DNA of 64,000 nt from Cyanidioschyzon merolae (Eukaryota). The notes below the pieces were generated by a model that saw only the letters and a list, made by a program, of their open reading frames with translations, searched no databases and had not been told where the DNA came from. The stretch lies in assembly GCA_000091205.1 (NCBI GenBank), contig AP006486.2. One strand, written 5' to 3'. The position numbers were made by a program, and so were the translations under genes. Shown here in pieces: positions 2,153 to 61,990 of this stretch. Positions within the stretch are counted from its first letter, which is position 1, and each line of letters begins with the position of its first letter.

Positions 2153-3716
2153 TTACCGGAACGGTGCTCCGTAGACCACAGAGGCGGCGGCGTTCACCCA
2201 GCGCAGGCGACATGCAGCGCGCCCGGCCTGCAGCGCTGACGCAACCAGCAGAGGCGCTGCTGTCGAACGGGCATCTTCGACGACGCATCGACAATCCGAG
2301 TCAGCGTAGAATTGTTCTTGTCGTTGATGGTGTTGATGATGATGACGACGACGACGAGGATATTCGACTGGTTGTTCTCGACCGAGTCGCTGTGCATCCG
2401 CTTGTTCACGTTCGTGCAGTGAAATCGACGACGATAGCACCGCCTGTGTGGTTGCCGAGCGCTGGTGCGGCTCGGAGCGAGTCGCTTCCAGCGGGCAGAG
2501 CTCCTCCGAGCTCGTACTTGTCCAGGGTTTGCCAGGCATTGTGGCTGGCGGCTGTGCATTCGAGTCTGACCCCCGGGGTGCCATAGCATCAACTGGGGAG
2601 CTCTTGGCGCCGACGCACTGCGGACTCGTGGCGGCCGACAAGTGCTCCCACGTCGCCACAGTGAGTCGATCCAGGTCGCCGTCGGTGACATCCCAGAGCT
2701 GCGCGACGACGCCGTGGGCACCTGCGGCGAGCCAGTCGAGCGCTGCTCCGTGCGCATCGAGTGCCTCAGCGTGCTCCAGGAGGCCGCTGCGACAACCCAT
2801 GAGAAACACAGCCTGGGGCAGGGTCGTCGTTTGACGCACTAGGCGGCGTGGTTGTAGGTATGCTTCTCCGGTCCCGTGTCCGCAGTAGAGCAGAACACAG
2901 GGCTGTACTGCGGCCAGCGCTTGGGTGATGCTGGCGCGCTGGCTGTCGTCGGCACCAGCAGCGCTATCAGCATTTGCAGAAGCGGCTGCGGTTGCGGCAA
3001 GGTCGGTCCATCCGTACCGTAAGCGAAACCCGGGGTGATGCTCTAGGAGAGGCCGCAGGAAACGCTCGGTGCGGCGCAAGTCACCAGCTGGATTCAACAA
3101 GAAAGCTCCACGTTGCCAACCGGGTACCGCACTGCGAGTCAGGTGATGGTAGCGCTCCAGGGCTTGCTCGATCGCCGCACTAGCAGGGAAACGCATCGCA
3201 GCCGCGTGGCGCAGCGTCGGTGTCGACTCGAGCGGCAGCAAGTCGTGCTCCGCGTCCAGGAGCAGCAACACAACCGGAGCGACACCGGAATCCGAGCTGG
3301 TCGCATCTGGCACGCTACCGGCACCATCGAGCTGCTGCAGCTGCGATGCAGACGCGGCGTTCGACACCGAAGCCGCCAATGGCAATCCGCACAGGAGCGT
3401 CTCGAGACGCTGGTCGAGCCAGCGGCCCAGCTGCTGATCGAGGCGGGTGCGGGTGTCCCACCAGGCACGTCGCTCCGGAGCGGAAAGCGAGAGCGCCTCC
3501 GACTCCGAGGCAAGATGTGTTTGCGTGCCGGCCTGCAGCAGCTGGGCAAGCTCGCGCGCCAACTGCTGCGCGTCTGGCCGCTGGTCGTCGTGTACCAGCC
3601 GCTGGGCGTGCAGGTGCAGCACGGAACCCCGTGCGGCCTTGGTACAGCTGCATTCCGCGTGCTCATTGCAAGGCGTCCACGAAAGCGACTCGTCTGCCAC
3701 GTCATGTGGGGCATCT

Positions 3717-5386: not shown

Positions 5387-5420
<34 letters not shown>

Positions 5421-24285: not shown

Positions 24286-25514
24286 TCACAGAAGAGATTC
24301 GGATGCCGCGGGACGGCACAAGACGTCCGAGCAGCTGGTGGCGTTCGGGTATCAAGGCATTGTACACGTTACGCGTTCTTCGGGGGCATGCACAGTCGAA
24401 GCATCAGCAGCGAGCATCTCGCAAAATGCGAGTACCGTCGACAATCGTGCGAATCATGGTAGCTACCGTACCTCTCGAGTAAGCCATGTTACCAGTTCTG
24501 ACCGTTCGTTGGCGCACAACCTGCAACAGTGAGCGCTGCACTGAACTCTGGTCCAGAATCGTTCCTATCGCGAGGCAAACTAGCGCGTAGACGCTCAAAT
24601 ATAGGAGTGGCGTGCTCGTTCCGGACCTACTGTATCGTGCCGCTCGTTTACACGTCGTCCATGAATGTGCGTGCGCGAAACGCGCTTCACTGCATGTGGT
24701 TCCACTGCCATTTGCAACACCGCGACACATCCACACCGCACTTAGACCGCGTGCGGCTACACTGCCAAACCGGATCCAGCGCCCAGCTATTCGCTCTGCC
24801 GCCTTCACAACCCGTGGCTGCGCAGCGGTGTCCCGCGTCAAGTGTCAAGCCTGTCGCGCCCGACTACTGCTCGTCTAGCCCGCTCGCACCAGCGCCATCA
24901 TTCGCCTGTTTCTGTTGCTGTCTGTCTCGTTTCCCTGGACGACTGTGTTGCTTTGCGTTCATCATCGTAAAGTAGAGACTGTAGACAGACTCTCGTTCCG
25001 CCGCACTAGCTGCTGCGTTTCCGCTCAGGTTAACACGTCTGCCGGGTGGACCACGAGGAACACGTTTCCGGTGCAAACGCGCATATTCCAAGTTGCGCAG
25101 CCGCTTCTCTTCCCGCAAGTCACGCCGTTGACGCATGAAGACTGACAGTGCTGCAGTGCCCGCCGAAGGGTACGGAGCACTGGAACGCTGCCTCGTTTCC
25201 ACTGCAGTTAATTTCTTCGAAGACGAAAGGAAAGCATATGAAGAATCTTTCGAAAAAGAAAGAGGTTTGAGTGATGAGATAAACATGACGTTCGATGGGT
25301 ACTTGGGAACGCCGCAACGCCACGAAACGACACCAAACGCCTTGCAGAAGAAAAACACTGCCGTGAGTGGTATTGTAGTGACGACGAACGCGTCTTGGAC
25401 AAACCATCTCCTGCTGACGGGCAGACGCCTCGCCGCCGTTCTCGACCGGCCACCCACGACTGGTTTCAACTTTTTCTCATATAGTTCTACTTTGAGAGGT
25501 TGTCCAACAAAATT

Positions 25515-27164
25515 CTATCTCGTCCACTCTGGAAGTCTATTCTCCAGCACCGCACATCTCCTTGTATTGATAGCGGCATTAATGTCTCGGTTCACAAACT
25601 CCATCCGTTTCTTGCCATCGTCGGTTGTACTTAATAATGCGAGTAGTCCACGAACTTTCGCTCTCCTTTCCATTTGCTCCTCCGTCAACGGTCCGTGCTT
25701 TGCTATTTCCTCAGGGCTCCGCTAATACGTTTCCATCTGGACCCTCTGGAGTGTACACCCCAGTTCATGGTGTGTATACGATGTTCGGAAGTCATCTACG
25801 GGCATCGTAACGAAACGCCGTGCGCACTCCTTGCACGTTTTTGTCGTTGGAGCTGGTGTAATGCCTTTTTTCGACGCCCAGCGCCCTGCTCCGTACGCTA
25901 CTACGAGCCTCTGACTTTCATTCTCCCTCCGGGCGCTCAACTGATTGAAAAAGTTCGAGAACGCCCGCTGCTTCCCACAACAGAAATTCATACGCAAACG
26001 AGCCCACCGGGGCTTGGTGGATTCTTTCCACAGGGCATCCCAATGAGCAGCGCGAACTTCCATGAACTCCCGAAATGCTTCAAAGTCGGTTCCTCGGCTC
26101 GTCACCTCGCTCAAAGCTTCCAGGTGATCCCTCACTCCTGAATTCCATCCAACGATTTTCATCCTCGCATTCATTATACCGGATTCCCGGTAATATCTAG
26201 CTCTTGACAACCTCAGCAGACGCTTGTCTTTATGACGTCAATTGTCGTCGACACTATCTTCCGCACGCTTGGGTACAGCGATGGTTATGATATTTGTGTT
26301 TCCGGGGTCCGCGCCAACGACAAAGCCGTTATCGTGCGCTTTCTGTGTTGCACGATCCACCTCCTTCTTTTCTCGATGCTTCGCCGCGCCAACGACAAAG
26401 CCGTTATCGTGCACTTCGTGTGTCGCAGGATCCTCCTTCTTCGTACCTTCATCCTTCGCCACGGGCGGAGCTGGACGATCTGTCTTCAAGCGCCGATAGT
26501 GTACAGACATGGCTACTCCATCGCTTTCGATCATCCCAGTGAATACCTTTCGCTTGCTCACTTTCAGACGTTTGAAATCGGCGAAATTCTTCTTCCAGTG
26601 CGTCTCCCGGCTTTCGCCGGAGAACTCCTCCCTGCTGACATGGAACTCGGGACTGATCTCCCTCATGATGCCGTAAAGGACGCCTGAATCGATAGTCACG
26701 AAATGTGACCTGATGTTGCACATTGGAACCACGTTGAAGCGCTTCCCCATTAGGAAAGCCTTCCGCCTCTCCCACTCCTCATTTGTCTCCTCATTCAGCT
26801 TCATTTCCGCCTTGCGTTCCAGCTCTCCGTCCAGAAACACGAAATAGCGCAGGGCGAGGCGATAGTATCTTTCCTTATCTTTTTTCGACTCTGATATCTT
26901 GTCTGTTGGACTCAGCAGCCCCAGTGCCGCACGGTGCTCTTCTACAACCGCACGGATGACAGAAGCTTCATTCGTGCTCTCGTTTGACGCCTTGTCTCCG
27001 ACGAATTCGATCTCCTGTTCATGCTGGCGATCGTTCGTGACGCCATTGGTAATCGCCCATTTTCCTTTGCGAGCGATGCCAGGGTACAGCGCAAACACGG
27101 CGCGTATCATGAAGCGTTCGAGGTTCATAGTCAAATGGTTCTTCAGGTTCGTGATGTACTTCAT
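25515..27164 (-). pseudogene. TnpB/Fanzor-like RuvC nuclease ORF (copy 1), interrupted
   Basis: RuvC-I-like [14 protein letters not shown]; RLVVAYGAGRW block; zinc-finger TCKECARRF...HHELGC; RuvC-III NRDINAAINIRRR after an in-frame TAG. There is an extra stop after ...DSVDDN. Confidence 0.55.
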
Positions 27165-28068
27165 CGCTCCGTATGTGTAAATGCACCAGTCAATTTTGTA
27201 TCGAGTACCGTCGAAGCTCTAAAAGGGATGTTTTTCGTGGAGGGCATGCACTAGCACACTTTCCCTCGGCGCTTCCGCTGCACCAAGCATCAGCTGTCGA
27301 ATAAAGGTCTTATCGAGAAACCCGTCCGGAATCCCGACCGTTTCCACCTGCGCCACGTCGCGATACATCTCCCTCGCCATATGCATCAGTCCTGACGACG
27401 CCTTGACAATACTCTTGGAGTATGACGCAACACTGTTTTCGATAGCGTCTCGCAGCTTTTCCCTGTACGGATCCTTGATATGTTTAAGAAGACAGACTTT
27501 GACGACCTACTTGTCGCACAGTCGTCTTTCGTGCCGCCTTCGACGCAGAGCGTCCCCCTTTCAGTCCTTCTTCTCTTCCTTTTCTTCTGGACTTGGCACT
27601 GTTTTTCTGTTTTTTCTGGCAGCCAGCGACACTGGGCCTCCAGGATCGTCGACTTGCTTTTCATAACTTCCTTTTTTTGTTTTTTTGGAAAACAACGCTC
27701 CCTCCAACGCCTCTGATATAAACAGCGAGGAAAACTTGAATAAACCAAACTGAGGGTTGAAATATAACTGAACTGAAAAGTACACTCTGCTATGACTTTA
27801 ACGCAAATGCAACTTGTACTTGAGAGCAACACGCTCAAGATCGCGATCCCGTTTCCCTTCAACGGCGAGACGCGTCGCGTTAGTTGACTGCCCGATCTCC
27901 CAGATGCGCCCACCGAGCGCGATTCTTTTTTTTCATGGACAAAACGTGTGCATAGGCCAGTGCTCTCGGATTATGCGCATTTTTCTTTTCTTTCTCTTTT
28001 ATTTTGTGTTTAACTTCAGTGCGCGGTAATGTATCTATAAAGCCCCCTCCCTCCAAGTTACATTACCT

Positions 28069-28500
28069 ATGCTGATTCTCGGATATTCTGGTCGTTTCAT
28101 ACGTCCTATCGTGTGTGCCTAGTACCTGCCTTTCCATATCCGCCTTTGGACCTTAAATGCTGGAGCAGATAGTTCATCGAGCTAGAGCAGCTTTTCTATA
28201 CCCCAGAGGGCGTCGGCTCGAGGCGTGCTTCACCCGACGTAGAATCGGGTCTCGTCGTCAGTTTGTGCTCGGACAGTCTGCGGATGCAGGCCTGTATTCG
28301 CTGCACGACATGCTGGAGAAACTTGACTATTAGGATGAATCCTGGGAGACGCCTCTCTCCCTCGTGATCATGCATGGAATGCGTTGTTGTCGGTTGGCAA
28401 TGCGGGTTTGTGCTTGACGCTCACCACAGTGGGTAGGCGCAGAAAGCATACTAAACCCGTGTGCGCGTCCGATTCGCTAGACCTTCCGCTTGGAAGGTAG
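28069..28500. repeat. about 430 bp core inside the element 5' region, related to the 55.2/61.3 kb repeats; contains a conserved hairpin gaccttccgcttggaaggta
   Basis: Shares ctcggatat.ctggtcgtttc.ta, ggcgtcggctcgaggcgtg.tt.c.ccgacgt and gaccttccgc.t.gaaggta blocks with 55309-55740 and 61429-61870. Confidence 0.45.
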
Positions 28501-29708
28501 CACGTGAGTCTGTTGGCCACGAATGAGCGCTGAGGCTCCGTTAGCGGACCATCAGTTGCCAGTGCTGCACTCAAAGTGAGTGTCCGGCCTTCGACTATCA
28601 CGGTGATACCCAGCTGCTGGTGTCCTTCAAGGAGCTCGCTGCGCTCCTGCTTCCAGCGCGGGCACTGTAACAGTAAATATGTCAGCGTCTCGGGGATCTC
28701 GTTTCCACAGCAGGGACATTTTGATTCTCAGTGCAATCCCAGTGTTCCCATACGGCTTAGAGTCGGTGCTGCTAGCCAGAAGCCACCAACGCGGATTTTG
28801 GCGCGCCACTGGCTACCGCGCGCAAGTCCCGGGAGCTCCAGCGCCTCCCACCAGTACTTGCATGTTTATGCCGGGTTCTAGTTCCGGTGTAGAGTCAAGA
28901 CGGGCGTTACTGGCACGACTGGTTCCGTGTCTACGTTCCCATATTGCTTTCTGGACGGTTCGCTTGAGGCGGCGGGAGCCTTCTACATTTCGGGGAAACG
29001 ATTGGAGAGCGTGTCTTCGCCTACGGAGAGATCAGATTGCGCGCACGCTCATCGCCGCTGATTGAAATTGGCCCGTTCGCGCGTCATGACCCGTGTCGTT
29101 GACACGCGGGTCATTCTGAAGCGCGCATCGCGCCTGCGCCAGCGCCGCAGCGGCCGCAGTGCTACGTGTCCACGTATCGAGCGATCCGCATGCGTGCGGT
29201 AAACGGATCAGCACGTGCGTTCGTTCGTGCGTGACAGGGCATCGAGCGAAAACGGATCCCCGCTGAGGCCAGTAACGTCGATGCCTGAAGCAACATGTCA
29301 ATGAGCCTGGTCCGTCGATGACGTTTCGTCGGAGGTGTTGGCCTCCCCAGAGCGTCGTTGTATGCTCATGTACGGGTTGATATTGGGTTAGGTTTAGGTT
29401 CGAGGTCAAGTCAACTGTGCCTGTTATCTGGTTCGCCATTGACGGGTGGCTCGATATCGCTGAGCGGTACCCAGCGCTGTGGGCCACTGTGTGCATATAG
29501 TTGAGGTGCACTTTGGGGTCCTCGAGGTTCGGTGGAAGTTGCCTGTTTGCAACTTGTTACTTGCACACAACGATTACGCACCGTTTCGAAGGCGAAACGC
29601 CCTCGTAGCGCCACAGCGAGTACGCGCTTGTAGAACAAGTTCACGGAAAGCGTCTGCAGCCGAGTCGTCTGGTGCCTGTGCGCAGTCGGCTCCGAGTCAC
29701 AGCCACCG

Positions 29709-48785: not shown

Positions 48786-48794
48786 ACCGACAAC

Positions 48795-51340
48795 GAATGC
48801 CTTTTACAAGAAAAAACGTTGCTGCCGCAAGTGGTATAGTAGTGGCGACAAACGCACCGTAGACAAGGAGTCTTCAGCCGACGTGCAGACGCATCTCAGT
48901 CTTTCTCGACCGGCCACCCACTACTTCTTCCAACATTTTTTCATATAGTTCGAGTTTGAGAGGTTGTCCAACAAAATTCTATCTCGTCCACTCTGGAAGT
49001 CTATTCTCCAGCACCGCACGTCTCCTTATATTGATAGCGGCATTAATGTCTCGGTTCACAAACTCCATCCGTTTCTTGCCATCACTGGATGTACTTAATA
49101 ATGCGAGTAGTCCACGAACTTTCGCTCTCCTTTCCATTTGCTCCTCCGTCAACGGTCCGTGCTTTGCTATTTCCTCAGGGCTCCGCTAATACTTTTCCAT
49201 CTCGACCCTCTGAAGTGTACACCCCAGTTCATGGTGTGTATACGATGTTCGGAAGTCATCTACGGGTATCGTAACGAAACGCCGTGCGCACTCCTTGCAC
49301 GTTTTTGTCGTTGGAGCTGGTGTAATGCCTTTTTTCGACGCCCAGCGCCCTGCTCCATACGCTACTACGAGCCTCTGACTTTCATTCTCCCTCAGGGCGC
49401 TCAACTGATTGAAAAAGTTCGAGAACGCCCGCTGCTTCCCACAATACAAATTCATACGCAAACGAGCCCACCGGGGCTTGGTGGATTCTTTCCACAGGGC
49501 ATCCCAATGAGCAGCGCGAACTTCCATGAACTCCCGAAATGCTTCAAAGTCGGTTCCTCGGCTCGTCACCTCGCTCAAAGCTTCCAGGTGATCCCTCACT
49601 CCTGACTTCTAGGTCTCATTTTGTTTCCTCGCATTCATTATACCGGAATCCCGGTAGGATCTCGCTCTCGGGAACTTGAAAACTCGCATGTCTTTATGAC
49701 GTAAATTGTCGTCGACACTATCTTCCGCACGCTTGGGTACAGCGACGGTTATGATATTTGTGTTTCCGGGGTCCGCGCCAACGACAAAGCCGTTATCGTG
49801 CACTTTCTGTGTTGCACGATCCACCTCCTTCTTTTCTCGATGCTTCGCCGCGTCAACGACAAAGCCGTTATCGTGCACTTCGTGTGTCGCAGGATCCTCC
49901 TTCTTCGTACCTTCATCCTTCGCCACGGGCGGAGCTGGACGATCTGTCTTTAAGCGCCGATAGTGTACAGACATGGCTACTCCATCGTTTTCGATCATCC
50001 CAGTGAATACCTTTCGCTTGCTCACTTTCAGACGTTTGAAATCGACGAAATTCTTCTTCCAGTGCGTCTCCCGGCTTTCGCCGGAGAACTCCTCCCTGCT
50101 GACATTGAACTCCGGACTGATCTCCCTCATGATGCCGTAAAGGACGCCTGAATCGATAGTCACGAAATGTGACCTGATGTTGCACATTGGAACCACGTTG
50201 AAGCGCTTCCCCATTAGGAAAGCCTTCCGCCTCTCCCACTCTTCATTTGTCTCCTCATTCAGCTTCATTTCCGCCTTGCGTTCCAGCTCTCCGTCCAGCA
50301 ACACGAAATAGCGCAGGGCGAGGCGATAGTATCTTTCCTTATCTTTTTTCGACTCTGATAGCTTGTCTGTTGGACTCAGCAGCCCCAGTACCGCACGATG
50401 CTCTTCTACAACCGCACGGATGACAGAAGCTTCATTCGTGCTCTCGTTTGACGCCTTCTCTCCGACGAATTCGATCTCCTGTTCATGCTTGCGATCGTTC
50501 GTGACGCCATTGGTAATCGCCCATTTTCCTTTGCGAGCGATGCCAGGGTACAGCGCAAACACGGCGCGTATCATGAAGCGTTCGAGGTTCATAGTAAAAT
50601 GGTTCTTCAGGTTCCTGATGTACTTCATCGCTCCGTATGTGTAAATGCACCAGTCAATTTTGTATCGAGTACCGTCGAAGCTCTAAAAGGGATGTTTTTC
50701 GTGGAGGGCATGCACTAGCACATTTTCCCTCGGCGCTTCCGCTGTACCAAGCATCAGGTGTCGAATAAAGGTCTTATCGAGAAACCCGTCCGGAATCCCG
50801 ACCGTTTCCATCTGCGCCACGTCGCGATACATCTCCCTCGCCATATGCATCAGTCCTGAAGACGCCTTGACAATACTCTTGGAGTATGACGCAACACTGT
50901 TTTCGATAGCGTCTCGCAGCTTTTCCCTGTACGGATCCTTGATATTTTTAAGAAGACAGACTTTCACCACCTTCTTGTCGCACAGTCGTCTTTCGTGCCG
51001 CCTTCGACGCAGAGCGTCCCACTTTCAGTCCTTCTTCTCTTCCTTTTCTTCTGGACTTGGCACTGTTTTTCTGTTTTTTCTGGCAGCCCGCGACACTGGG
51101 CCTCCAGGATCATCGACTTGCTTTTCATAACTTCCTTTTTTTTGTTTTTTTTTGGAAAACAACGCTCCCTCCAACGCCTCTGATATAAACAGCGAGGAAA
51201 ACTTGAATAAACCAAACTGAGGGTTGAAATATAACTGAACTGAAAAGTACACTCTGCTATGACTTTAACGCAAATGCAACTTGTACTTGAGAGCAACACG
51301 CTCAAGATCGCGATCCCGTTTCCCTTCAACGACGACATGC
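48795..51340 (-). mobile_element. Fanzor/TnpB-bearing repeat element, copy 2 (5'-truncated), left arm of a head-to-head inverted pair
   Basis: Homologous to copies 1 and 3 from the 3' region through the nuclease ORF. Ends at the junction string gttgaagggaaacgggatcgcgatc..., lacking its own 5' region. Confidence 0.6.
48979..50628 (-). pseudogene. TnpB/Fanzor-like RuvC nuclease ORF (copy 2), interrupted
   Basis: Same motifs as the other copies; private frameshift/stop after ...ARKQNET plus the shared in-frame TAG before RuvC-III. Confidence 0.55.
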
Positions 51341-54300
51341 GCGTCGTATCTCATGCCTGCCAGATATGGAGGTGCGCGTATCGACCGCGATGCCCCCTGG
51401 CACTGTATGGGCCGAGGGGCCCACCATGCGCACCCGGTTCAGTCGGATATCCATGCAGACCCCAACGCACCGCAAGAACACTTGGATGAAATCGATGCAG
51501 ATTTGGCTGAAGCGACGGTTATGCGAAAACACGCTCGAATCGTTCCCCAGAAATGTAGAAGGCTCCTACCGCCTCAAGCGAACTGTTCGAACAACCATAT
51601 GGGAACGTAGACACGGAACCAGTCGCGCCAGTAACGCCCGCCTTGACTCTATACCGGAACTACAACCTAGCATACACATGCGAGTACTGGTGGGAGGCGC
51701 TGGAGTTCCCGGGACTTGCTCGCGGTATCCAGTGGCTCGCCAAAATCCGCGTTGGTGGTTGCTGACTACCAGCACCTGCGCTAAACCATATAGGAACACT
51801 GGAATCGCAGTGGGAATCACACTGTCCCTGCTGTGGAAACGATAAACCCGAGACGCTGACATATTTAGGCTTACAGTGCGCGCGCTGGAAGCAGGAGCGC
51901 AGCGAGCTCCTTGAAGGACGGCATCAGCCGGGTATCACCGTGATAGTCGAAGGCCGGACACTCACTTTGAGTGCAGCACTGGCAACTGATGGTCCGCTAA
52001 CGGAGCCTCAGCGCTCATTCGTGGCCAACAGACTCACGTGCTACCTTCCAAGCGGAAGGTCTAGCGAATCGGACGCGCACACGGGTTTAGTATGCTTTCT
52101 GCGCCTATCCACTGTGGTGAGCGTCAAGCACAAACCCGCATTGCCAACCGACAACAACGCGTTCCATGCATGATCACGAAGGAGAGAGACGACTCCCAGA
52201 ATATATCTTAACGGCCAAGTGTCTCCAGCGTGTCGTGCCGCGAAGGCAAGCTTGCATCCGCAGACCGTCCGAGCACAAACTGACGACGAGACCCGATTCT
52301 ACGTCGGGTGAAGCACCCCTCGAGCCGACGCCCTCTGTGGTATGGAAAAGCCGTTCTAGCTCGATAAACTCTCTGCCCCAGCGGTTCAAGCGCAAAGGCG
52401 GATATGGAACGGCAGGTATTAGGTACCCACGACAGGACGTATGAGACGATCAGTATCTCCAAGAAGAAGTATAGGTAATGTAACTTGGAGGGAGGGGGCT
52501 TTATGGATATATTACCGCGCGCTGAAGTAAAACGCAAAACAAAAGAGAACGAAAAGAAAAAGCGCACAATAGGAGAATGCTGGCCCAAGTAAACGTCTTA
52601 TCAATAGAAAAATTGCCGTCGTTGAAGGGAAACGGGATCGCGATCTTGAGCGTGTTGCTCTCAAGTACAAGTTGCATTTGCGTTAAAGTCATAGCAGAGT
52701 GTACTTTTCAGTTCAGTTATATTTCAACCCTCAGTTTGGTTTATTCAAGTTTTCCTCGCTGTTTATATCAGAGGCGTTGGAGGGAGCGTTGTTTTCCAAA
52801 AAAAACAAAAAAAAGGAAGTTATGAAAAGCAAGTCGATGATCCTGGAGGCCCAGTGTCGCGGGCTGCCAGAAAAAACAGAAAAACAGTGCCAAGTCCAGA
52901 AGAAAAGGAAGAGAAGAAGGACTGAAAGTGGGACGCTCTGCGTCGAAGGCGGCACGAAAGACGACTGTGCGACAAGAAGGTCGTCAAAGTCTGTCTTCTT
53001 AAACATATCAAGGATCCGTACAGGGAAAAGCTGCGAGACGCTATCGAAAACAGTGTTGCGTCATACTCCAAGAGTATTGTCAAGGCGTCTTCAGGACTGA
53101 TGCATATGGCGAGGGAGATGTATCGCGACGTGGCGCAGATGGAAACGGTCGGGATTCCGGACGGGTTTCTCGATAAGACCTTTATTCGACACCTGATGCT
53201 TGGTACAGCGGAAGCGCCGAGGGAAAATGTGCTAGTGCATGCCCTCCACGAAAAACATCCCTTTTAGAGCTTCGACGGTACTCGATACAAAATTGACTGG
53301 TGCATTTACACATACGGAGCGATGAAGTACATCAGGAACCTGAAGAACCATTTTACTATGAACCTCGAACGCTTCATGATACGCGCCGTGTTTGCGCTGT
53401 ACCCTGGCATCGCTCGCAAAGGAAAATGGGCGATTACCAATGGCGTCACGAACGATCGCAAGCATGAACAGGAGATCGAATTCGTCGGAGAGAAGGCGTC
53501 AAACGAGAGCACGAATGAAGCTTCTGTCATCCGTGCGGTTGTAGAAGAGCACCGTGCGGCACTGGGGCTGCTGAGTCCAACAGACAAGATATCAGAGTCG
53601 AAAAAAGATAAGGAAAGATACTATCGCCTCGCCCTGCGCTATTTCGTGTTTCTGGACGGAGAGCTGGAACGCAAGGCGGAAATGAAGCTGAATGAGGAGA
53701 CAAATGAGGAGTGGGAGAGGCGGAAGGCTTTCCTAATGGGGAAGCGCTTCAACGTGGTTCCAATGTGCAACATCAGGTCACATTTCGTGACTATCGATTC
53801 AGGCGTCCTTTACGGCATCATGAGGGAGATCAGTCCCGAGTTCCATGTCAGCAGGGAGGAGTTCTCCGGCGAAAACCGGGAGACGTACTGGAAGAAGAAT
53901 TTCGTCGATTTCAAACGTCTGAAAGTGAGCAAGCGAAAGGTATTCACTGGGATGATCGAAAGCGATGGAGTAGCCATGTCTGTATAGTATCGGCGCTTGA
54001 AGACAGATCGTCCAGCTCCGCCCGTGGCGAAGGATGAAGGTACGAAGAAGGAGGATCCTGCGACACACGAAGTGCACGATAACGGCTTTGTCGTTGACGC
54101 GGCGAAGCATCGAGAAAAGAAGGAGGTGGATCGTGCAACACAGAAAGTGCACGATAACGGCTTTGTCGTTGGCGCGGACCCCGGAAACACAAATATCATA
54201 ACCGTCGCTGTACCCAAGCGTGCGGAAGATAGTGTCGACGACAATTTACGTCATAAAGACAAGCGTCTGCTGATGTTGTCAAGAGCTAGATATTACCGGG

Positions 54301-55165
54301 AATCCGGTATAATGAATGCGAGGAAGAAAATCGTTTCATGGAATTCAGGAATGAAAGATCACCTGGAAGCTTCGAGCGAGGTTACGAGCCGAGGAGCCGA
54401 CTTTGAAGCATTTCGGGAGTTCATGGAGGCTCGCGCTGCTCATTGGGATGCCCTGTGGAAAGAATCCACCAAGCCCCGGTGGGCTCGTTTGCGTATGAAT
54501 TTCTGTTGTGGGAAGCAGCGGGCGTTTTCGAACTTTTTCAATCAGTTGAGCGCCCGGAGGGAGAATGAAAGTCAGAGGCTCGTAGTAGCATACGGAGCAG
54601 GGCGCTGGAAGACCCAAAAGGGACTATGCCAGCTCCAACGACAAAAACGTGCAAGGAGTGCGCACGGCGTTTCGTTACGATGCCCGTAGATGACTTCCGA
54701 ACATCGTATACACACCATGGACTGGGGTGTACACTCCAGAGGGTCCAGATGGAAAAGTATTAGCGGAGCCCTGAGGAAATAGCAAAGCACGGACCTTTGA
54801 CGGAAGAGCAAATGGAAAGGAGAGCGAAAGTTCGTGGACTACTCGCATTATTAAGTACATCCAGTGATGGCAAGAAACGGATGGAGTTTGTGAACCGAGA
54901 CATTAATGCCGCTATCAATATAAGGAGACGTGCGGTGCTGGAGAATAGACTTCCAGAGTGGACGAGATAGAATTTTGTTGGACAACCTCTCAAACTCGAA
55001 CTATATGAAAAAATGTTGGAAGAAGTAGTGGGTGGCCGGTCGAGAAAGACTGAGATGCGTCTGCACGTCGGCTGAAGACTCCTTGTCTACGGTGCGTTTG
55101 TCGCCACTACTATACCACTTGCGGCAGCAACGTTTTTCTTTCGAAAGGCGTTCGCTAGCAGCCTT
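51341..55165 (+). mobile_element. Fanzor/TnpB-bearing repeat element, copy 3 (with 5' region), right arm of the inverted pair
   Basis: The 5' region 51535-52625 matches copy 1 27870-29025 in inverted orientation. The body 52625-55165 is the inverted duplicate of 48795-51340. Confidence 0.6.
53322..54969 (+). pseudogene. TnpB/Fanzor-like RuvC nuclease ORF (copy 3; most contiguous), interrupted by in-frame stops
   Basis: ...[16 protein letters not shown] (RuvC-I) ... [18 protein letters not shown] ... RLVVAYGAGRW ... C-x2-C zinc finger ... EKY-TAG-RSPEEIAKHGPLTEEQMERRAKVRGLLALLSTSSDGKKRMEFVNRDINAAINIRRRAVLENRLPEWTR (RuvC-III). A private TAG sits at 53988. An in-frame 95 aa N-terminal extension (about 52980-53270) is separated from the main ORF by a single TAG. 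Confidence 0.6.
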
Positions 55166-55189
55166 CGATGATGCGTTCTTCGGGAACAG

Positions 55190-55870
55190 CTGCGTTTTTT
55201 TTTCTGATGAAAAAATGGTTAGATTCACTATGGATCCCAGAATTCGGAATGGATAATGGCTTTCGGGAAAGCGTCCACGATGAAGCGCCTACCTTCAAGT
55301 TCTATCACGCATACTTCCTCTCGGATATACTGGTCGTTTCGTATATTCTATCGTGCGCCGAGCCTGCCGTGAACACCCGCCGTAGCGCTTATACCACTGA
55401 AGCAGATGCCACACGGAGACAGAACGGCTTTGCCATACCACTGAAGGCATCGACTCGAGGCGTGGTTCCTCCGACGTGGGGTCGGAGTACATAATATATC
55501 TGGGAGCCTGTAAGCTGCGCAGACAGACGCACTGCCTGTGGCAGCGCGGAGCGATCTACAAGGAGTCCACTGTGACCACGGAGACGCCCAGACGCAGCAT
55601 CCTGCTCCAAGTCCCCGAATGAAATGCGTTGCGGACGAGTTGTGCAGGTATCGCCACAAAACCTGCCATTGGAGGAAGCATGAAGCACTAGCTAGCCCCG
55701 AAGACTCGTCCGGCTCGCGGGACCTTCCGCCTAGAAGGTAAAGTTTCGAAGATGCGGAAACTTTCCCCCTTTTCCATGAGTCATATCAAGGTCGAAAGAA
55801 ACTGTTATCGAGTTGCTAGTCAGTTGTTAGTTTCTGTTCTTTCGTCTCTAGGAGAAAGCTCGCTGCTCAC
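55190..55870 (+). repeat. about 680 bp dispersed repeat (family R), copy adjacent to element copy 3
   Basis: About 80% identical, in direct orientation, to 61320-61990. Core 55309-55740 is related to the element 5' region and ends with the hairpin gaccttccgcctagaaggta. Confidence 0.6.
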
Positions 55871-56251
55871 GGTCGGGCACAACTCGAGGGCCCACCAGTT
55901 CGAAAACTGGCTATTGCTGCTGCTGCCCCTATGCAACGCGCTGGAGTGCGCTCGCTCTACAACCTCCTGTCCGCGCCCTTGGCCAAAACTGACCACCTGT
56001 GATCAACGCGCGATCGCAGCGTTGTGTGGTTGCGTCGCTTCGCGAGGAAGCGCGCAGGCCCACGACCCGTGTGCGGATGACGCCGACATTGAGATCGCGC
56101 TCGCGATGGCGATCGCAAACAGACTTCAGGGCTCGCCGTTGTGCTCGCGACTCTGTTTCGTGAACAAAGCCTGCGCACTTAGCACGCTCATTTTATATCG
56201 ATTCATTTAGGAGCGCCAGCAGTGATCTAGAAGGAGAATAGAAGCGCTACA

Positions 56252-57328
56252 ATGTTGAGGTGCGACTTTTGTGAGACGACGGAGACGCCATTATGGCGCG
56301 CGGGCCCTCGCGGACCCAAGACTCTGTGTAACGCCTGTGGCGTGAAGTGGAAAAAGGGGAAGCTTGATGGCTTCGGTCCCGGTGCCTGTAATGTGCCCAG
56401 AACGCACACGGGAAAGAGGCATCCGCGAGCGGTATATGGAAGACCTCGTCGAGCAGGTGCCGTCGCGGATGCGCTGGAACTGCCTTCCCCGGAACGCAGC
56501 CTCAGCAAGTTCCGGGGAAGCGTCCGTCCGGGTTGGTATGTGCCGTCCGAACTCGAGTACTCTGGCAGAATTCAACACCCGAGGCGGAGTAGCTCGCCGC
56601 CTGAAACACGCTGTGCGTACGTTGACGTTGATCGTGAGGACTCAGCACCGGTCGTGCGAGAGCAGTTTGCGCCCTCTGTTTTCGCACCCAGTATTCCTTG
56701 TCGCGGAGAGAGCGCGCCTCTTAATATTGTGCGAAAGGATGCAGGTCGTGGTCCCGGAACACAACATACAACGTTACCGGCGGACCACTTGATTCGTGAG
56801 TCGCTGTTCGTTCGCGTCGATAGTGAACGGGCGTTGGCGTCGGACCCCATTGGGTATCCAGCGGCGATACCGTCCTGGGATGACGTCTCCATTGAATCGC
56901 TCTCCGAGGATGGTGACGGTGCCGACAACTACCATGACTTGGAGCTGAACCTGCCCGAACAAATGCCTCTGCCCGACGCTGCGCATACAAGTACGCACGT
57001 CCTCGGAGGTGAGCATGACTGGCGTCACGCCCAAGGCGCTGCATCTGGGGAAACTGCCTTGCCACTGCCACTGCCGCTGGCACCCGCGAAAGGCTCACTA
57101 ACGAAAACCATGGAACGTGAGCCTGTGGATGCTGCTACCAAAGGTGTCCGTCTGCTCCTAGATGCAGCGCGGTACGTGGAGTACGCGAGCAGCCCGCTCT
57201 CGTCGCAGTGGTCACCCCTGAGATCGGCATCGTCCAGCGCTCCGCCGTATCACCAGGCTGGTACCTCGTCCCCGAACCGTCTCACACCATCCTATCTAAC
57301 ACCAATGGTGCTGGAGAAGGACTGGTAA
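56252..57328 (+). CDS. GATA-type zinc-finger protein
   Basis: N-terminal CDFCETTETPLWRAGPRGPKTLCNACGVKWKKG is a C-x2-C-x17-C-x2-C GATA finger with the TPLWR and LCNACG hallmarks; the rest is low-complexity. Confidence 0.55.
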   Translation: MLRCDFCETTETPLWRAGPRGPKTLCNACGVKWKKGKLDGFGPGACNVPRTHTGKRHPRAVYGRPRRAGAVADALELPSPERSLSKFRGSVRPGWYVPSELEYSGRIQHPRRSSSPPETRCAYVDVDREDSAPVVREQFAPSVFAPSIPCRGESAPLNIVRKDAGRGPGTQHTTLPADHLIRESLFVRVDSERALASDPIGYPAAIPSWDDVSIESLSEDGDGADNYHDLELNLPEQMPLPDAAHTSTHVLGGEHDWRHAQGAASGETALPLPLPLAPAKGSLTKTMEREPVDAATKGVRLLLDAARYVEYASSPLSSQWSPLRSASSSAPPYHQAGTSSPNRLTPSYLTPMVLEKDW

Positions 57329-59641
57329 CGCATGTGAGTGGGTATTCGCCTGCCCCGCCGAGCGGATCATTGTCCATGGACGAGGCGTTCGGCGTACGTC
57401 ATCAGATGTGCAGCGTTTAACGCGAACGACGAGAGCACCTCCCGCGCTTCCGCGAAGGGAAGCATTGTCCACGGACAAGGCGTGTGCGGATGCGTCATCA
57501 GTTATGCAGCGCTTTACGGCAACGGTGCGAGCACGTCGCACCCGAGTCCCGTAGGTGCGCCTGTGTCGTGTGCGTTTACGAATGCGCATCCGTGACATTC
57601 GTGTCCCGCGTTACCGTCAGACACGCACACACGAAGCGTGTTGCCACTGAGCTGCCGTGCAATAGCGGCACGCTCTTCTAATCTCTAATCCTTAACCTTT
57701 TGAAACAACTGAAACTTTCAACCTCATTTCTATTTTACCCACACACGGTCTCCTGACATGAACTACAAATGTGATGTGGTCAAAAGAAGACGCATTCAGT
57801 CAGAAATATCGCTGATATGCGAGCGCCGACTTGGTACTAGTGCCGACGCTGTGCGTACCTCGACAGTGGACAGGCAGGGAGGCACACGGAGGTCATGTTG
57901 AACACAAATGCCGTGGCGGTATGGTGTTCGACTCCTGCCACCCGCTGGTCTCTTATCGAGGCCGCACTGATGCTGCTTGCCTGTTCGCGTCGTCGGTGCG
58001 TGCGCCGAGCGGCGGCAAAGCCTGTGCTTCGTATGTAACTTAGATTGAACGCATACCCGCAGATATCAAGTATGCTAACTCGTTTAACAGTAAAACTCAC
58101 CGAGTGTCTCTTGAACGAGTGCTGTTCTGTTCATCGCGCTGCGCATGGACTTGTTCTGGGAACGCTGCGTACCGCTCTTGACCACAGACATGCGGCTGTA
58201 TGGTGCGATACGCAGCGGACATCATCGCAGAGACAGTGTCCTAGATATTGGTAAAAGACAGTGATCACATCGGAGGCAGCTTCTAGTATCGCAGCGCAAG
58301 GGCGATGATCGCAGCGGGGGCGCATCCCGCAGGGCAGCACGAAGTTTGACCGAGAAACTGCTGGTGTGTGACTAGCCTCTCTCCGCATACACTCCAGGCC
58401 ATTAAGCAACGGGTCACGAACACCTGCAAAAACGATCGATTTTAGAGCTGTGCTTGAAGGCCATCGCCCCAGGCCCTGGACACGACTACTCGCAGAACTG
58501 CATAACCGGGACCGAAGAGAACCTGCTCCAGCATAATGTTCGGGTCATCGGTGTTTGTTGACAAGTCGGCGGTGGCTCGAGCTGCTCCATCAGTCCGTTC
58601 AGGAAGCTTCGCTCGCGACGTGTGTCCCGGGAAGCGATCGAACAGCCCTTCATTACAGAACGTTCACTTCCAGGCTTCCAAACTCGATATCGCGGTGGCA
58701 AGAGTGATCAGTGATGTACGTTCCACTGGCGCCGTTCTTGCCCCGTTGGCGCTACCAGCGACACACGAAAAACCACCTGTGGCGTTCTGCAGCAACGCCT
58801 GCTGTATCGGAAGTGCATGGCTTTAAACGAACGCGAAGCGTTACCAGGTGAGGTTTCATTGCAGCTCACGGGCTCGATGTTCTCGAGCAGCCTCGAGCCG
58901 TACGAGCGATCGCGACGAGCAGTCAAAACGAGACTGTGTTGCCTGGCTGCGAGGGGCGGCGTTCGTTCGGATTCCCTCGTTCAAAACACTACTGAACGCG
59001 ACTCTGCGTTTACCATCGGACGAAATCGCAGGCATTCGTTGAAGTTTATAAGAATGCTCGATGGGAGCGCATACTCCTGCTCTATTGCCAAGGTGTTCAT
59101 TGCCCAAGGCGATGGATGCTTTCTTCGCGAGCGCCAACGTCCACAACGAATGCACGTGCGTTTGTTGCGCATCGCCCGAAGCGTAGGTTGTCCCACACGC
59201 GGCTGCAGTTCGCAACAAAAATCGCCACAGACCCCTGTCGAACGTCTGTCAGAGAGATGGACTGGAAGCGCCGGCAAAGGCCAGCAGCAATCCCGCATCC
59301 GAACGAGACCTGCTAGCTTCATGAGTCTTAGATCAGGAGTCACCACGACGACTTCGGGCAGCGTGACCGCGCTATCCAAGCTTGCCGATGCGTCATCGCG
59401 TCAAAAGTGAGCGTCTTTGCTGCACACGATGCTCATGGCTTATGTCTGCAACACATTCGATTAGGACAGCTTCGCAAGCACCAGCTACGCACATCACCAC
59501 CGCATAACTGCAGTACAATAGGCAGCGAATCGCATGCCAGGCCGCTTATCGACCCAGCTATGCTTCTGTCTACTGCAGAGGCCATGGATCAGAACTCGCT
59601 GGAGTCTGGGCAGCGCCTTTGCTGGTGACTGCACCATGCCA

Positions 59642-61183
59642 CTACGGGATCTCCTCGGGGAGCACCGGGGACGCTGCCCCGAACACCCTTTGGATGTAGT
59701 CATTATCGAATCCTTGAAAAATTTGCTCACGTTCTGCAGTTGCCTTTGAACTGCCAATGCCAGCCTCTGGCACTGCATGTTCTGAATTGTCCGAAAGCGT
59801 GGTGTCTGTAGCGCATGTATGCCGACCAAGCGACAAGTGATGGCGACGAGCGCCGTGCTCACGTAGTGCCGCTTCAATGAGGGCTGGATTGGAACGCTCT
59901 TCTTTCTTGAATTTGTTCTTGATTTGTTTTCGGTTTCGATTGGGAAAGAGCTGCTCAATCATAGAATAGTTTTGACCGAAAGCTCGTAGCGCACGATAGA
60001 AAAGCGCAGTCTCCTCAGGCGGCCAGCGCTCACAAGAGGCGCGATTCGTGAAGGACGCAATGGTCGCAGCACCGCGGCGAGGCGCTCCAGTATGCGTTTC
60101 AACAGAGATGTTCTCGTTCTCTGCTGGACGCTGCTCGCTCGTTATGGCAGTGCGCAGAAGTCTCTGCTGCTCAGCGCGTATCGCTCGACGGTGGCGCTGG
60201 ACACGGCGCTGCAGATCGCACTCGACCGACGCTGGACCCGAAGCCGCTGACGCCATCGAAGCGTTACCTCCCACCGCACCAGCATGATCTGAATGCTGTT
60301 CAGGGTGCACGCTTTCTTGTCCAGCATCAGCGTGCGCATCCGCCACATGCGAAGCGGTGACGACTAACGAGCGCTCATCCAGGACAAGGTTGCCGCGATT
60401 ATCTAAGCGGACCTGTGGTGCAAGAACGACGGTATCTGCACCAGGGATCCGTCGGTCGAGCCTGTCGGATTGTGTGTCCTCCACGATAGCAGGCGATTCA
60501 TAGAGTCGTTCAGGAACCAACACATCACGTGTGGCTGGTGCCCCTGATACACCGCCTTGCCTAGGCGATGGGCCCTCGGTCTCTGCGGGTATCTGCAACC
60601 CGATGTCTTTCGCAGACGCTTCCGCAACTGTTTCTTCAGAGCCAGGTGAGCAGTGTGCGGTACCCGTACGGTTGTCAGCCTGTCGTCGACGGCGGTCCAC
60701 AGTTGGAGTGCGGTTGACGGGGCGCTGGCGGCTTCGTACGAGTTCTCGGATCCCTAGAGAGAGAGGATCAACGCTCATGGCTCCCGTATAACTTTTCTCA
60801 GCGTCTACTGCGCTTGCATCACTTGGTCGCGAGTGGCCCAGGCTGCTTCCGCCCGTCATTCGCGTGCGTTCAACATCCTGCACGAACCGAGACAACGGCG
60901 GAGAGACTAGCAGCCGTGTCATACCGCCCTGTTCAGAGACAGCTTCAGCGTCCAAATAGTCGTCCGAGCCGACATCAACTTCGGGGACGCTGCGTTGACC
61001 CGGAACTACGTGACTTGCGACCTCCGAGTGAGGAGCTTCGTTGACTCCCACAGTGCCGCTGGACGGGTGCGTGTTCGGCGACCTTGGGGTCTGCCGCGGC
61101 ACACGCCGTTGGCGCTTTCGCGAAGCACCCTCTGGCGGTAGTGAGGCTACCAACTCGATATTTTCAGTTGGTGAAGTCGACAT
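59642..61183 (-). CDS. Bdp1-like protein (TFIIIB B'' subunit; SANT/Myb-like domain)
   Basis: RWPPEETALFYRALRAFGQNYSMIEQLFPNRNRKQIKNKFKKEERSNP matches the Bdp1 SANT signature (W..EET.LFY.AL..FG.....I..LFP.R.R.QIK.KFK.EER.NP) from memory. Stop codon is TAG. Confidence 0.6.
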   Translation of the reverse strand: MSTSPTENIELVASLPPEGASRKRQRRVPRQTPRSPNTHPSSGTVGVNEAPHSEVASHVVPGQRSVPEVDVGSDDYLDAEAVSEQGGMTRLLVSPPLSRFVQDVERTRMTGGSSLGHSRPSDASAVDAEKSYTGAMSVDPLSLGIRELVRSRQRPVNRTPTVDRRRRQADNRTGTAHCSPGSEETVAEASAKDIGLQIPAETEGPSPRQGGVSGAPATRDVLVPERLYESPAIVEDTQSDRLDRRIPGADTVVLAPQVRLDNRGNLVLDERSLVVTASHVADAHADAGQESVHPEQHSDHAGAVGGNASMASAASGPASVECDLQRRVQRHRRAIRAEQQRLLRTAITSEQRPAENENISVETHTGAPRRGAATIASFTNRASCERWPPEETALFYRALRAFGQNYSMIEQLFPNRNRKQIKNKFKKEERSNPALIEAALREHGARRHHLSLGRHTCATDTTLSDNSEHAVPEAGIGSSKATAEREQIFQGFDNDYIQRVFGAASPVLPEEIP

Positions 61184-61319: not shown

Positions 61320-61990
61320 CCCTTTTTTTCGATGACGAAACGTTTATATGGACCGTGGATCCCAGATTGCTGAATCCATACAGGCTTTCGGGAATGTTTC
61401 CATTATGCAGGGCAATACTCCCAAGTTCCGTCACGTATACTTCCTTTCGGATATACTGGTCGTGTTGTACATGCTATCGTTCACAGAGTACCCGCTGTGA
61501 GCGCTCGCCGTAGCGCCTTTACCGCTGGTGCGGATGAAGCGCGGAGACGGAACGGCGTTGGTATGCCCATAGACATGTAGGCTCGAGGCATGGTGCACCT
61601 GATACGGTGTCGGAGTACGTAGTAATTCTGGGAGCCTGCAAACTGCGTAGACAGACCTACTGCCTGCGGTACCGGGAGGCGATAAACTAGGAGTCCACCG
61701 CGACCGGGGTGATATCCAGATGCAGCTTAACTGCCCCTAGTCCTGGAATAAACTGCACTGCGGACGAGTTGCTCAGATCTCACTGAGGCACGAGGCACAG
61801 TGGGGAGCAAGAAGCGCAAGCGCGGCAAACTCGTCCGGCTCACGGGACCTTCCGCCTGGAAGGTAAACTAGCGATAATACGGAAACCTTTTCCCCTTTTA
61901 CCGTCTACGTTAGAGAGGGAAAGAAATCGCTATCTCGTTCCTAGTTCGTGGTTCGTCTCTGTTCTCTTTTCTATCCCACATCAATCTATG
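61320..61990 (+). repeat. about 680 bp dispersed repeat (family R), second copy
   Basis: Aligned by eye to 55190-55870, including tggatcccaga..., ggagtac.ta.ta.t.tctgggagcctg.aa.ctgcg.agacagac and ...ctcgtccggctcacgggaccttccgcctggaaggtaaa. Confidence 0.6.

Follow-up and report, generated by a model that had tools for sequence, protein, structure and literature searches.

The 64,000-nt stretch of DNA analysed here (the window) is part of a Cyanidioschyzon merolae 10D chromosome carrying three decayed copies of the CMe-1A core, relics of a gene for the RuvC nuclease Fanzor1; we put the probability of this reading at about 90%. TnpB is the ancestral lineage of Fanzor, and the biochemistry and structures of Fanzor1 proteins date from 2023-2024. 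The window ORF is a genuine Fanzor1 homologue (a RuvC nuclease of the TnpB/Cas12 lineage) in a eukaryote, and it belongs to the already known CMe-1A family, published in 2013 for this same genome, rather than to a new one. The single gene of the CMe-1A core encodes Fanzor1, a eukaryotic relative of TnpB and Cas12. By analogy with characterised Fanzor1 proteins, intact members of the family would be RNA-guided DNA endonucleases; their expected partner would be an omega-RNA transcribed from the element's 3' end, with the DNA just beyond the right end probably serving as its guide.

Profile and structure evidence for Fanzor1

The three-copy consensus retrieves 94 homologues (E down to 2e-276), so the motif match lies far beyond chance. 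Searched against the PDB by itself, this consensus gives no match, so the link to Fanzor1 runs through its homologues. A 12-sequence profile likewise found nothing in the PDB, and a 110-sequence profile of relatives, run against 177,635 PDB sequences, matches only PpFz1 (2.5e-23), SpuFz1 (4.9e-18) and GtFz1 (2.3e-12). Profile HMMs had been suggested as a check by an earlier interpretation of the bare sequence (the sequence-only reading); applied to the consensus, the Pfam and NCBIfam models remain below threshold, and it is the profile of relatives that finds Fanzor1. PF07282 (Cas12f1-like_TNB) scores 13.1 bits (cut-off 26.3, E 0.11) and NF040570 (guided_TnpB) 10.9 bits (cut-off 100, E 0.19), both touching only the RDxNAA tail, that is, the last ~11-15 profile residues. 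The precomputed Pfam label of the homologues, PF26935 (DUF8286, weak), is functionally uninformative.

Structure prediction, also suggested earlier for a consensus ORF of the three copies, was run instead on an intact relative (P0073, 676 aa, 40% identical to the window consensus). The AF2 model of this relative (pLDDT 92.3, pTM 0.89) has a Fanzor1 fold (WED/REC/RuvC/TNB): its top seven Foldseek matches are all Fanzor1, with E values of 2e-17 to 5e-15, TM scores of 0.53-0.72 and full-length alignments, whereas Cas12 and Fanzor2 reach an E of only about 1e-4 (TM about 0.2 for Cas12f and Fanzor2). The model of a closer intact relative (P0002, 752 aa) was discarded (pLDDT 52.5, shallow alignment). 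At the family level, then, the proposed TnpB/Fanzor-lineage RuvC nuclease holds up, specifically as Fanzor1.

Among characterised proteins, PpFz1 (Parasitella parasitica Fanzor1; PDB 9CF0-9CF3) gives the best profile match, which spans the REC/WED region and the DEFRTS and RDxxAxLN motifs, with a Foldseek E of 4e-16 to the P0073 model; however, PpFz1 has a large RuvC insertion (the FRI domain) that binds cyclophilin, and a CxxC...C finger, and the CMe-1 clade has neither. SpuFz1 (Spizellomyces punctatus Fanzor1; PDB 8GKH, 9CEU-9CEZ) matches the P0073 model in fold over the whole protein (Foldseek E 2e-17, TM 0.63-0.72) and shares the rearranged RuvC-II with the CMe-1 family, although sequence identity is only about 15%. 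SpuFz1 has a CCCC zinc finger in its NUC/TNB domain, 30-nt inverted repeats and, beyond the stop codon, a 75-nt omega-RNA scaffold (PMC10432273); the CMe-1 clade differs in having neither the CCCC finger nor TIRs. Prokaryotic TnpB (IS200/IS605) carries the same C-terminal RuvC-III signature as the window ORF, RDxNAAxNI, but the HMM scores fall far below the family thresholds, and the window family differs further in its eukaryotic host, its much larger REC domain and the lack of a TnpA partner.

A rearranged RuvC site, altered in the window copies

[quoted passage not shown] The family Asp/Glu/Asp fall on PDB chain residues 777, 935 and 1000, which with an offset of 394 correspond to SpuFz1 D383, E541 and D606, the metal ligands of that enzyme (PMC10432273). 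Conservation among the relatives is nearly complete for the first Asp (109/110) and complete for the Gly at the canonical RuvC-II position (110/110), the Glu (110/110) and the last Asp (107/107). Fanzors have Pro or Gly at the canonical RuvC-II Glu position, according to PMC10530073, and the earlier suggestion that RLVVAYGAGRW would fit a rearranged Fanzor site was correct. What it overlooked was the relocated Glu, in VDEFRT, 33-35 residues downstream of the VVAYGAG Gly. Intact members would thus have one rearranged RuvC site, made up of the Asp in DPG, the Gly at canonical RuvC-II, the relocated Glu in VDEFRT and the Asp in RDxNAA.

The window copies depart from this arrangement. Their context reads TCKECARRF...VDDFRTSYTHH(E/G)LGC, with VDDFRT in all three copies in place of the VDEFRT of the CMe-1 consensus and of 110/110 relatives. 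Alignment to the catalytic residues in order, another check put forward with the original claim, therefore succeeds for the family (D/E/D on SpuFz1), while the window copies read D/D/D at these positions. An Asp replacing the catalytic Glu might still coordinate metal.

The C-x2-C zinc finger of the sequence-only reading proved spurious. Its TCKEC owes the first Cys to a private Tyr-to-Cys change and lies upstream of the catalytic Glu position, at a site where YKEC or FNEC stands in the consensus and in relatives. A CxxC of any kind in the interval from the catalytic Glu to the RuvC-III Asp occurs in only 6/110 relatives, and most relatives have 0-2 Cys in it; judged from these alignments, the CMe-1 clade lacks the CCCC zinc finger.

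Host, family and arrangement of the copies

Five ORFs of the window are identical to C. merolae 10D proteins (BAM79224, BAM79229, BAM79230, BAM79233 and BAM79234) encoded on a 513,455-bp contig, which gives a name to the eukaryotic host that had been proposed and displaces the fungal, oomycete or trypanosomatid host to which composition and gene content had seemed to point; host ORFs in the window run uninterrupted for up to 2350 aa in the standard code. In C. merolae, CMe-1A has ~150 copies, each ~80% identical to the consensus and without TIRs, and some copies in the genome are still intact; the Repbase consensus is 3169 bp long with a 734-aa ORF in 1 exon, and its 5' 635 bp are identical to TE-N2_CMe, copies of which lie nearby (Bao & Jurka 2013, Mobile DNA 4:12). 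All three window copies match this consensus at 83-87% nucleotide identity over positions 648/703-3169 (83.5-86.5% for copy A by BLAST), and over 755 aligned positions the protein of the three-copy consensus shares 73.9% identity with the CMe-1 Fanzor1 consensus protein.

The copies share with CMe-1A the host genome, the family, the 3' terminus, the absence of TIRs and the presence of TE-N2_CMe copies nearby. They differ from it in being inactivated, in having an additional in-frame repeat unit of 63 nt (about 21 codons), and in lacking the 635-bp TE-N2 module, in place of which stands a LINE-like fragment, in two orientations. With their first position at consensus 648 or 703, preceded by this LINE-like fragment, the window copies are core-only or alternative-5'-module members of CMe-1A. 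BLAST also detects an internal 75-bp duplication, on which TRF gave no report.

Self-BLAST of the window delimits a repeat of ~2.54 kb present in 3 copies (Table 1), with pairwise nucleotide identities of 97.0% (A/B), 96.2% (A/C) and 94.7% (B/C). The three-copy repeat described earlier is thus confirmed at 95-97% identity; the ranges first assigned to it (53322-54969 in copy A, and its counterparts) do lie inside the repeat, but reach only from an internal Met to a premature stop (TAG), the unit itself being larger. Alignment of the 5' junctions shows that copy A is missing ~55 bp at the start of the core as well as the 5' TE-N2 module. Copies A and B stand head-to-head, forming a 6.4 kb inverted pair that flanks a LINE-like fragment (spacer U). 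Copy B is collinear with an intact relative locus (L002), and spacer U is 85.7% identical to positions 4403-5600 of that locus. Spacer U has no direct Pfam match; its ORF family comprises 39 relatives, two of them with RVT_1, and has tblastn support. The solo TE-N2_CMe-like element downstream of copy A is 82% identical to the CMe-1A consensus over positions 2-644 (BLAST).

Table 1. Features of the CMe-1A copies and their surroundings, in window coordinates.
Feature	Position	Strand	Remarks
Copy A, CMe-1A core	52614..55154	+	Self-BLAST; consensus positions 703-3169
Copy B, CMe-1A core	48794..51404	-	Consensus 648-3168; end 51337, 51404 against a relative
Copy C, CMe-1A core	25336..27923	-	Consensus 648-3169; end 27867 or 27923
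Degenerate Fanzor1 ORF, copy A	52822..55090	+	Ancestral ATG to consensus stop position; four-way alignment with consensus ORF
RuvC-I GADPGN, within a 14-residue segment	54171..54188	+	Asp = SpuFz1 D383; Asp in 109/110 relatives
VVAYGAG, within RLVVAYGAGRW	54582..54602	+	Canonical RuvC-II position, Gly; aligns to SpuFz1 VVMGD
VDDFRT, relocated catalytic Glu position	54686..54703	+	= SpuFz1 E541; Asp in all three copies
RuvC-III NRDINAA, within NRDINAAINIRRR	54893..54913	+	Asp = SpuFz1 D606
3' terminal ~130 nt, candidate omega-RNA scaffold and transposon right end	55024..55154	+	RNA status putative
Spacer U between B and A	51406..52612	+	5'-truncated 3' part of LINE-like retroelement, A-run end; 5' module of copy A
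Second LINE-like fragment U	27927..29023	-	5' module of copy C; 88.7% identical to U beside A
Solo TE-N2_CMe-like element	55206..55850	+	55 bp downstream of copy A; = 5' 1-644 of CMe-1A consensus

The inverted A/B pair with its one common spacer, the lesions common to the copies, the LINE-like junction that is the same in A and C, and the failure to find TSDs would all suit an ordinary duplication, segmental or inverted, of a block of chromosome, with no transposition involved. We nevertheless consider such an origin unlikely. The 3' terminus of the family, a boundary common to 60+ copies, is exactly where all three copies stop, with unrelated sequence beyond; the core-plus-module layout recurs at several other loci in related genomes; and the LINE-like parts of A and C (88.7%) are far more diverged than the cores (96%). 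Neither TIRs nor TSDs were found, and a TSD search around copy C together with its LINE-like module returned only 6-mers, at chance level. LINE 3' transduction, suggested by the A-run at the LINE/core junction and the variable upstream extent, was judged unlikely because no A-tail or TSD follows the core, other 5' modules have no LINE ORF, and the LINE-like parts are the more diverged.

A candidate omega-RNA at the 3' end

The 3' terminal ~130 nt are predicted to fold into a long closing helix (AGUAGUGG/CCACUACU) with internal hairpins, while a terminal hairpin directly abuts the end of the element. RNAalifold on 43 sequences gave no structure under default scoring, and Ribosum scoring was used; on the sense strand the family alignment then beats column shuffles more clearly (z = -2.5) than on the antisense strand (z = -1.15). 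As single sequences, the consensus gives z = -2.28 and copy A gives z = -1.69, with 9/200 shuffles folding as well as copy A. Rfam (gathering and E<=1) and tRNA scans gave no match. At these values, support for an omega-RNA-like structure in the element's 3' end is modest. In the CMe-1 clade only ~60 nt lie beyond the stop codon of the consensus, which means that an omega-RNA, if there is one, must overlap the ORF.

Such a structure raises the question of whether protein-dead copies could act as "ghosts" whose 3' ends are used in trans by intact CMe-1 Fanzors, as an omega-RNA source or as transposon ends. In A and B, the conserved helices of the family persist in the 3' terminal ~130 nt, which stop exactly at the family's 3' boundary, on top of the strand bias in the family alignment; in S. 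punctatus, 134 ghost loci have no ORF yet retain the omega-RNA region (PMC10432273); intact CMe-1A copies remain in the genome (Bao & Jurka 2013); and dead copies with shared lesions were still multiplied. Against this, the structure z-scores are modest, above all that of copy A alone, no comparable Rfam family exists, and the tail of copy C, more decayed than those of A and B, is so heavily mutated that its closing helix is broken. On balance we regard a role in trans as quite improbable for these copies, and return to their reading as CMe-1A relics.

Shared lesions mark the copies as pseudogenes

None of the copies has an intact ORF: each carries 6 in-frame stops in addition to a frameshift at codon 2, the latter caused by a 1-nt deletion right after the ATG (consensus position 908) that is common to all three. 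Nonsense codons 35, 149, 626 and 695 are also present in all three copies, and codon 730 is a nonsense codon in A and B, its TGA being absent from C. In copy A, the stops lie at 52923, 53265, 53985 (private), 54761, 54968 and 55073. Every copy also has private lesions (stops, a frameshift), including a 1-nt deletion near 54622 in A, a stop at 49611 in B, and stops at 27509 and 26240 in C. At the nonsense codon sites, the CMe-1 consensus and intact relatives have sense codons.

A consensus of the three copies had been suggested earlier as a way to remove private lesions; the majority consensus restores no ORF because most lesions are shared. With the lesions mostly shared and not private, the locus is a set of pseudogenes, and the candidate active Fanzor locus of the sequence-only reading falls away. 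Private substitutions are spread nearly uniformly over codon positions 1/2/3 (33/35/48). The private changes of copy B show a third-position excess (24/41), which hints at gene conversion from a selected copy and not pure drift.

An active Fanzor whose stops and frameshifts are bypassed by introns, readthrough or recoding, or are mere sequencing errors, is extremely improbable. Introns do occur in Fanzor genes elsewhere (PMC10530073) and the frame is otherwise kept over about 2.2 kb. Each stop, however, aligns codon-for-codon with a sense codon of the intronless 734-aa consensus ORF with conserved coding on both sides, and sequencing error is ruled out by the three-fold sharing of the lesions and by the presence of the codon 695 TAG in a metagenomic orthologue of 98.7% identity. 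The standard code applies in host ORFs, none of the three copies retains the catalytic Glu, and for the longest ORF of copy B (49609-50628) no gene with its product is on record. An alternative genetic code or introns as the source of the shared stops were likewise rejected, the host ORFs being uninterrupted and the consensus intronless.

The CMe-1A relics of the window, then, are unable to make Fanzor1 protein, though they may still be transcribed to a residual degree or yield omega-RNA. The three copies descend from one template that had already been inactivated (by the codon 2 frameshift, the four nonsense codons and the Glu-to-Asp change) and have since undergone roughly neutral drift, a history that makes them relics. 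Their spread may have been passive, through trans-mobilisation by other machinery, or may have come about by duplication or gene conversion.

Discussion

The discovery value of the locus is small: the C. merolae Fanzor1 (CMe-1/CMe-1A) was catalogued in 2013, and the three window copies are dead. The locus does provide a clean positive control, indicating that motif-level reading can find Fanzor relics.

For the family as a whole, we offer a broader picture only as a doubtful proposal, in which the CMe-1 clade is a large, finger-less Fanzor1 lineage (at least 3,580 clusters at 50% identity) built on a constant 2.5 kb core with a hairpin-bearing, omega-RNA-like 3' end and exchangeable 5' modules (TE-N2 and a LINE tail pointing either way, among others), moving by an undescribed mechanism that leaves neither TIRs nor TSDs, and in which protein-dead copies are still propagated and might supply omega-RNA or ends in trans. 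The combination of a constant 3' core and interchangeable 5' modules without TIRs or TSDs restates the question of how these elements move. With its invariant D/E/D, its lack of a canonical CCCC finger and its intact members in natural Cyanidioschyzon populations, the CMe-1 clade could interest those mining thermoacidophiles for compact editors.

Three decayed copies of a published Fanzor1 element

The window contains three copies (A, B and C) of a repeat of approximately 2.54 kb, with pairwise identities of 94.7–97.0%. The feature is already published for the C. merolae genome: Bao and Jurka (2013, PMC3627910) described one Fanzor1 family, CMe-1, whose 734-aa, single-exon ORF is carried by the element CMe-1A (3169-bp consensus; approximately 150 copies, each matching that sequence at about 80%; no TIRs, TSDs given as undetermined), the 5′ 635 bp of which are 95% identical to a separate element, TE-N2_CMe. 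Against the CMe-1A consensus sequence in the supplement of that paper, A, B and C align at 83–87% identity over positions 648/703–3169, and the protein from their three-copy consensus shares 73.9% identity with CMe-1 over 755 aligned positions. Five host ORFs in the window (by Pfam domains, Sec1/Unc-18-like, amidohydrolase, Nop14-like, GATA factor and TFIIIB B''-like) are identical to strain 10D proteins (BAM79224, BAM79229, BAM79230, BAM79233 and BAM79234).

Positions of repeat copies, neighboring elements and private lesions in the window
Feature	Position	Strand	Remark
Copy A	52614–55154	+	repeat comparison within window
Copy B	48794–51337	−	repeat comparison; to 51404 against relatives
Copy C	25336–27867	−	repeat comparison; to 27923 against relatives
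A/B head-to-head inverted repeat	48794–55154		arms 2.54 kb, 97% identity; spacer 1.28 kb
LINE-like fragment, 3′ part	51406–52612	+	repeated family
LINE-like fragment, 3′ part	27927–29023	−	repeated family
TE-N2_CMe-like, full-length, solo	55206–55850	+	80–82% to CMe-1A consensus 1–644
TE-N2_CMe-like, full-length, solo	61330–61974	+	80–82% to CMe-1A consensus 1–644
TE-N2_CMe-like fragment	28046–28249
TE-N2_CMe-like fragment	52292–52495	−
TE-N2_CMe-like fragment	9367–9431
CMe-1A 3′ coding fragment	9585–9751	−	69% to consensus 2851–3020
Tandem duplicate of ~75-bp unit	54023–54177		~25 aa per unit, 82% identical; same positions in B, C
Private lesions, A	stop 53985; 1-nt deletion near 54622
Private lesion, B	stop 49611
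Private lesions, C	stops 27509 and 26240

The peptide motifs quoted in the sequence-only reading are all found in one reading frame of the repeat; the coordinates it gave lie inside the repeat, but start only at an internal Met and stop at a premature TAG. The short coding fragment at the left of the window, which adjoins a TE-N2 fragment, is a fourth relic, much older than A, B and C.

Fanzor1 identity and active site

The three-copy consensus matches just the final residues of two profiles, below threshold in each case: Pfam Cas12f1-like_TNB scores 13.1 bits where 26.3 is required, and NCBIfam guided_TnpB scores 10.9 bits where 100 is required. A single-sequence PDB search gave no match. The consensus has 94 homologues in a 5.8-billion protein set, among them intact proteins of 650–750 aa. 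When 1.84 billion cluster representatives were searched with a profile, 3,580 clusters passed E ≤ 1e-3, and 466 of these also passed E ≤ 1e-30. A profile built from 110 diverse full-length family members (A3) matched exactly three PDB sequences, each a Fanzor1: those of Parasitella parasitica (E 2.5e-23), Spizellomyces punctatus (E 4.9e-18) and Guillardia theta (E 2.3e-12). The AlphaFold2 model of P0073, an intact relative 40% identical to the window consensus (mean pLDDT 92.3, pTM 0.89), likewise has Fanzor1 structures as its best seven Foldseek matches in the PDB (E 2e-17 to 5e-15, TM 0.53–0.72, full-length), with Cas12 and Fanzor2 weaker (E ~1e-4, TM ~0.2). Profile and fold together bear out the proposed Fanzor-like nuclease. 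Many homologues carry a weak precomputed Pfam label, PF26935 (DUF8286), so that Pfam treats part of this Fanzor1 clade as functionally uncharacterised.

In SpuFz1, metal is coordinated by D383, E541, D606 and N385 (Saito et al., PMC10432273). In the A3 profile alignment (the SpuFz1 PDB chain is an MBP fusion, with a numbering offset of 394), the family's DPG Asp, VDEFRT Glu and RDxNAA Asp fall in order on D383, E541 and D606, and are conserved in 109/110, 110/110 and 107/107 relatives. The canonical RuvC-II position, which reads RLVVAYGAGRW in the window, has the AYG Gly in all 110. This Gly and the relocated Glu are the rearranged Fanzor site that Jiang et al. (PMC10530073) described and Xu et al. 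(PMC11423790) presented again in structural terms, as the sequence-only reading had suggested; it overlooked the relocated Glu itself, in place of which A, B and C have Asp (VDDFRT). Its C-x2-C zinc finger does not hold up: TCKEC is a Tyr-to-Cys change from consensus TYKEC, upstream of the catalytic Glu. Whereas SpuFz1 and PpFz1 have a CxxC...C finger, CMe-1 relatives largely lack one, just 6/110 having any CxxC in the matching stretch.

Homology, fold and catalytic motif mapping hold at the family level. Intact members would be RNA-guided endonucleases, with guidance inferred by analogy with SpuFz1, GtFz1 and PpFz1.

Inactivation and multiplication

We mapped lesions by codon-wise alignment of each copy to the published intronless CMe-1A consensus ORF. 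Most are common to all copies, and a majority consensus, proposed as a way to remove private lesions, keeps in-frame stops. A, B and C have a 1-nt deletion immediately 3′ of the ATG, nonsense codons 35 (CAA to TGA), 149 (TAC to TAG), 626 (CAG to TAG) and 695 (GAG to TAG), and an in-frame +3 insertion; nonsense codon 730 (TGG to TGA) is in A and B only. The private deletion in A is the single indel difference across the coding part in the three-way alignment. A, B and C cannot make a Fanzor1 protein and are non-functional here. Changes from consensus common to the three number 74/66/107 at codon positions 1/2/3, and private substitutions a near-uniform 33/35/48, suggesting some purifying selection before inactivation, then drift.

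The copies also have one additional 63-nt unit of an internal ~75-bp repeat relative to the consensus. This unit sits in a predicted disordered linker immediately upstream of RuvC-I and varies in number among relatives, the consensus having one fewer and the intact 752-aa relative P0002 several more.

A scan of JGI metagenomes found 71 related loci, several with intact ORFs, including L002 (752 aa; DNA ~82–85% identical to copy A). Another, L033, is an orthologue of window 53348–59981 at 98.7% identity and shares the premature TAG, so inactivation is older than the divergence of that strain and not a sequencing error. The dozens of CMe-1 loci (L003–L073), some intact, come from a handful of metagenomes (Ga0080006, Ga0078972, Ga0207433, Ga0209012, JGI24721J*, JGI20133J14441 and Ga0123519); together with the orthologue, the intact loci indicate that close 10D relatives with a possibly active Fanzor family have been sampled in nature.

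A, B and C are relics, copied from a template that had already lost function, whether by trans-mobilisation, duplication or gene conversion. Gene conversion among copies is suggested by the contrast between the Fanzor cores (96% identical) and the two LINE-like parts that adjoin them in the window (88.7%), and by a third-position excess within a cluster of private changes in copy B. A further metagenomic locus, L020, compared with window 25336–28976 and 52617–55556, is nearest copy C in its 5′ part (97.0%) and the A locus in its core and 3′ flank (98.1%), and lacks copy A's 55-bp 5′ deletion; this mosaic is either a gene-conversion difference between strains or an assembly chimera between repeats.

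Modular 5′ ends and a candidate omega-RNA

The constant core starts at approximately consensus position 648 and is joined across loci to five or more distinct upstream modules; in alignments with relatives, B and C can be followed ~55–65 bp further at their 5′ ends. The module in the window is a 5′-truncated LINE-like fragment ending in an A-run, in sense orientation beside A and C and inverted beside B; its ORF ends in ...KHKPALPTDNNAFHA and belongs to a family in which some members carry RVT_1. Together, B, this fragment and A make up an inverted structure of 6.4 kb that could potentially undergo inversion or become unstable through hairpin formation. Neither TIRs nor TSDs were detected. One full TE-N2_CMe-like copy lies 55 bp downstream of the 3′ end of copy A. 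The 3′ UTR of the LINE-like fragment contains a ~200-bp TE-N2-like piece in inverted orientation, so the retroelement has sequence in common with TE-N2.

A, B, C, the consensus and ~60 metagenomic related copies have the common 3′ boundary ...GAAAGGCGTT, past which the flanks are unrelated. The last ~130 nt comprise a long closing helix (AGUAGUGG/CCACUACU), internal hairpins and a terminal hairpin, of which there are two sequence variants that differ in register. Against column-shuffled controls, the tail alignment gives z = −2.5 in sense and −1.15 in antisense; single-sequence folding gives −2.28 for the consensus and −1.69 for copy A. An Rfam search found no match, and covariation has little power here because most copies decay neutrally. 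In other Fanzor/TnpB systems the omega-RNA scaffold overlaps the end of the ORF, and the tail is modestly consistent with such a scaffold.

The proposed candidate Fanzor locus is a real Fanzor-like feature, but one of non-functional copies already published for this genome; its remaining interest lies in a clade that lacks the finger, in modular 5′ ends that are unexplained and in the candidate omega-RNA.
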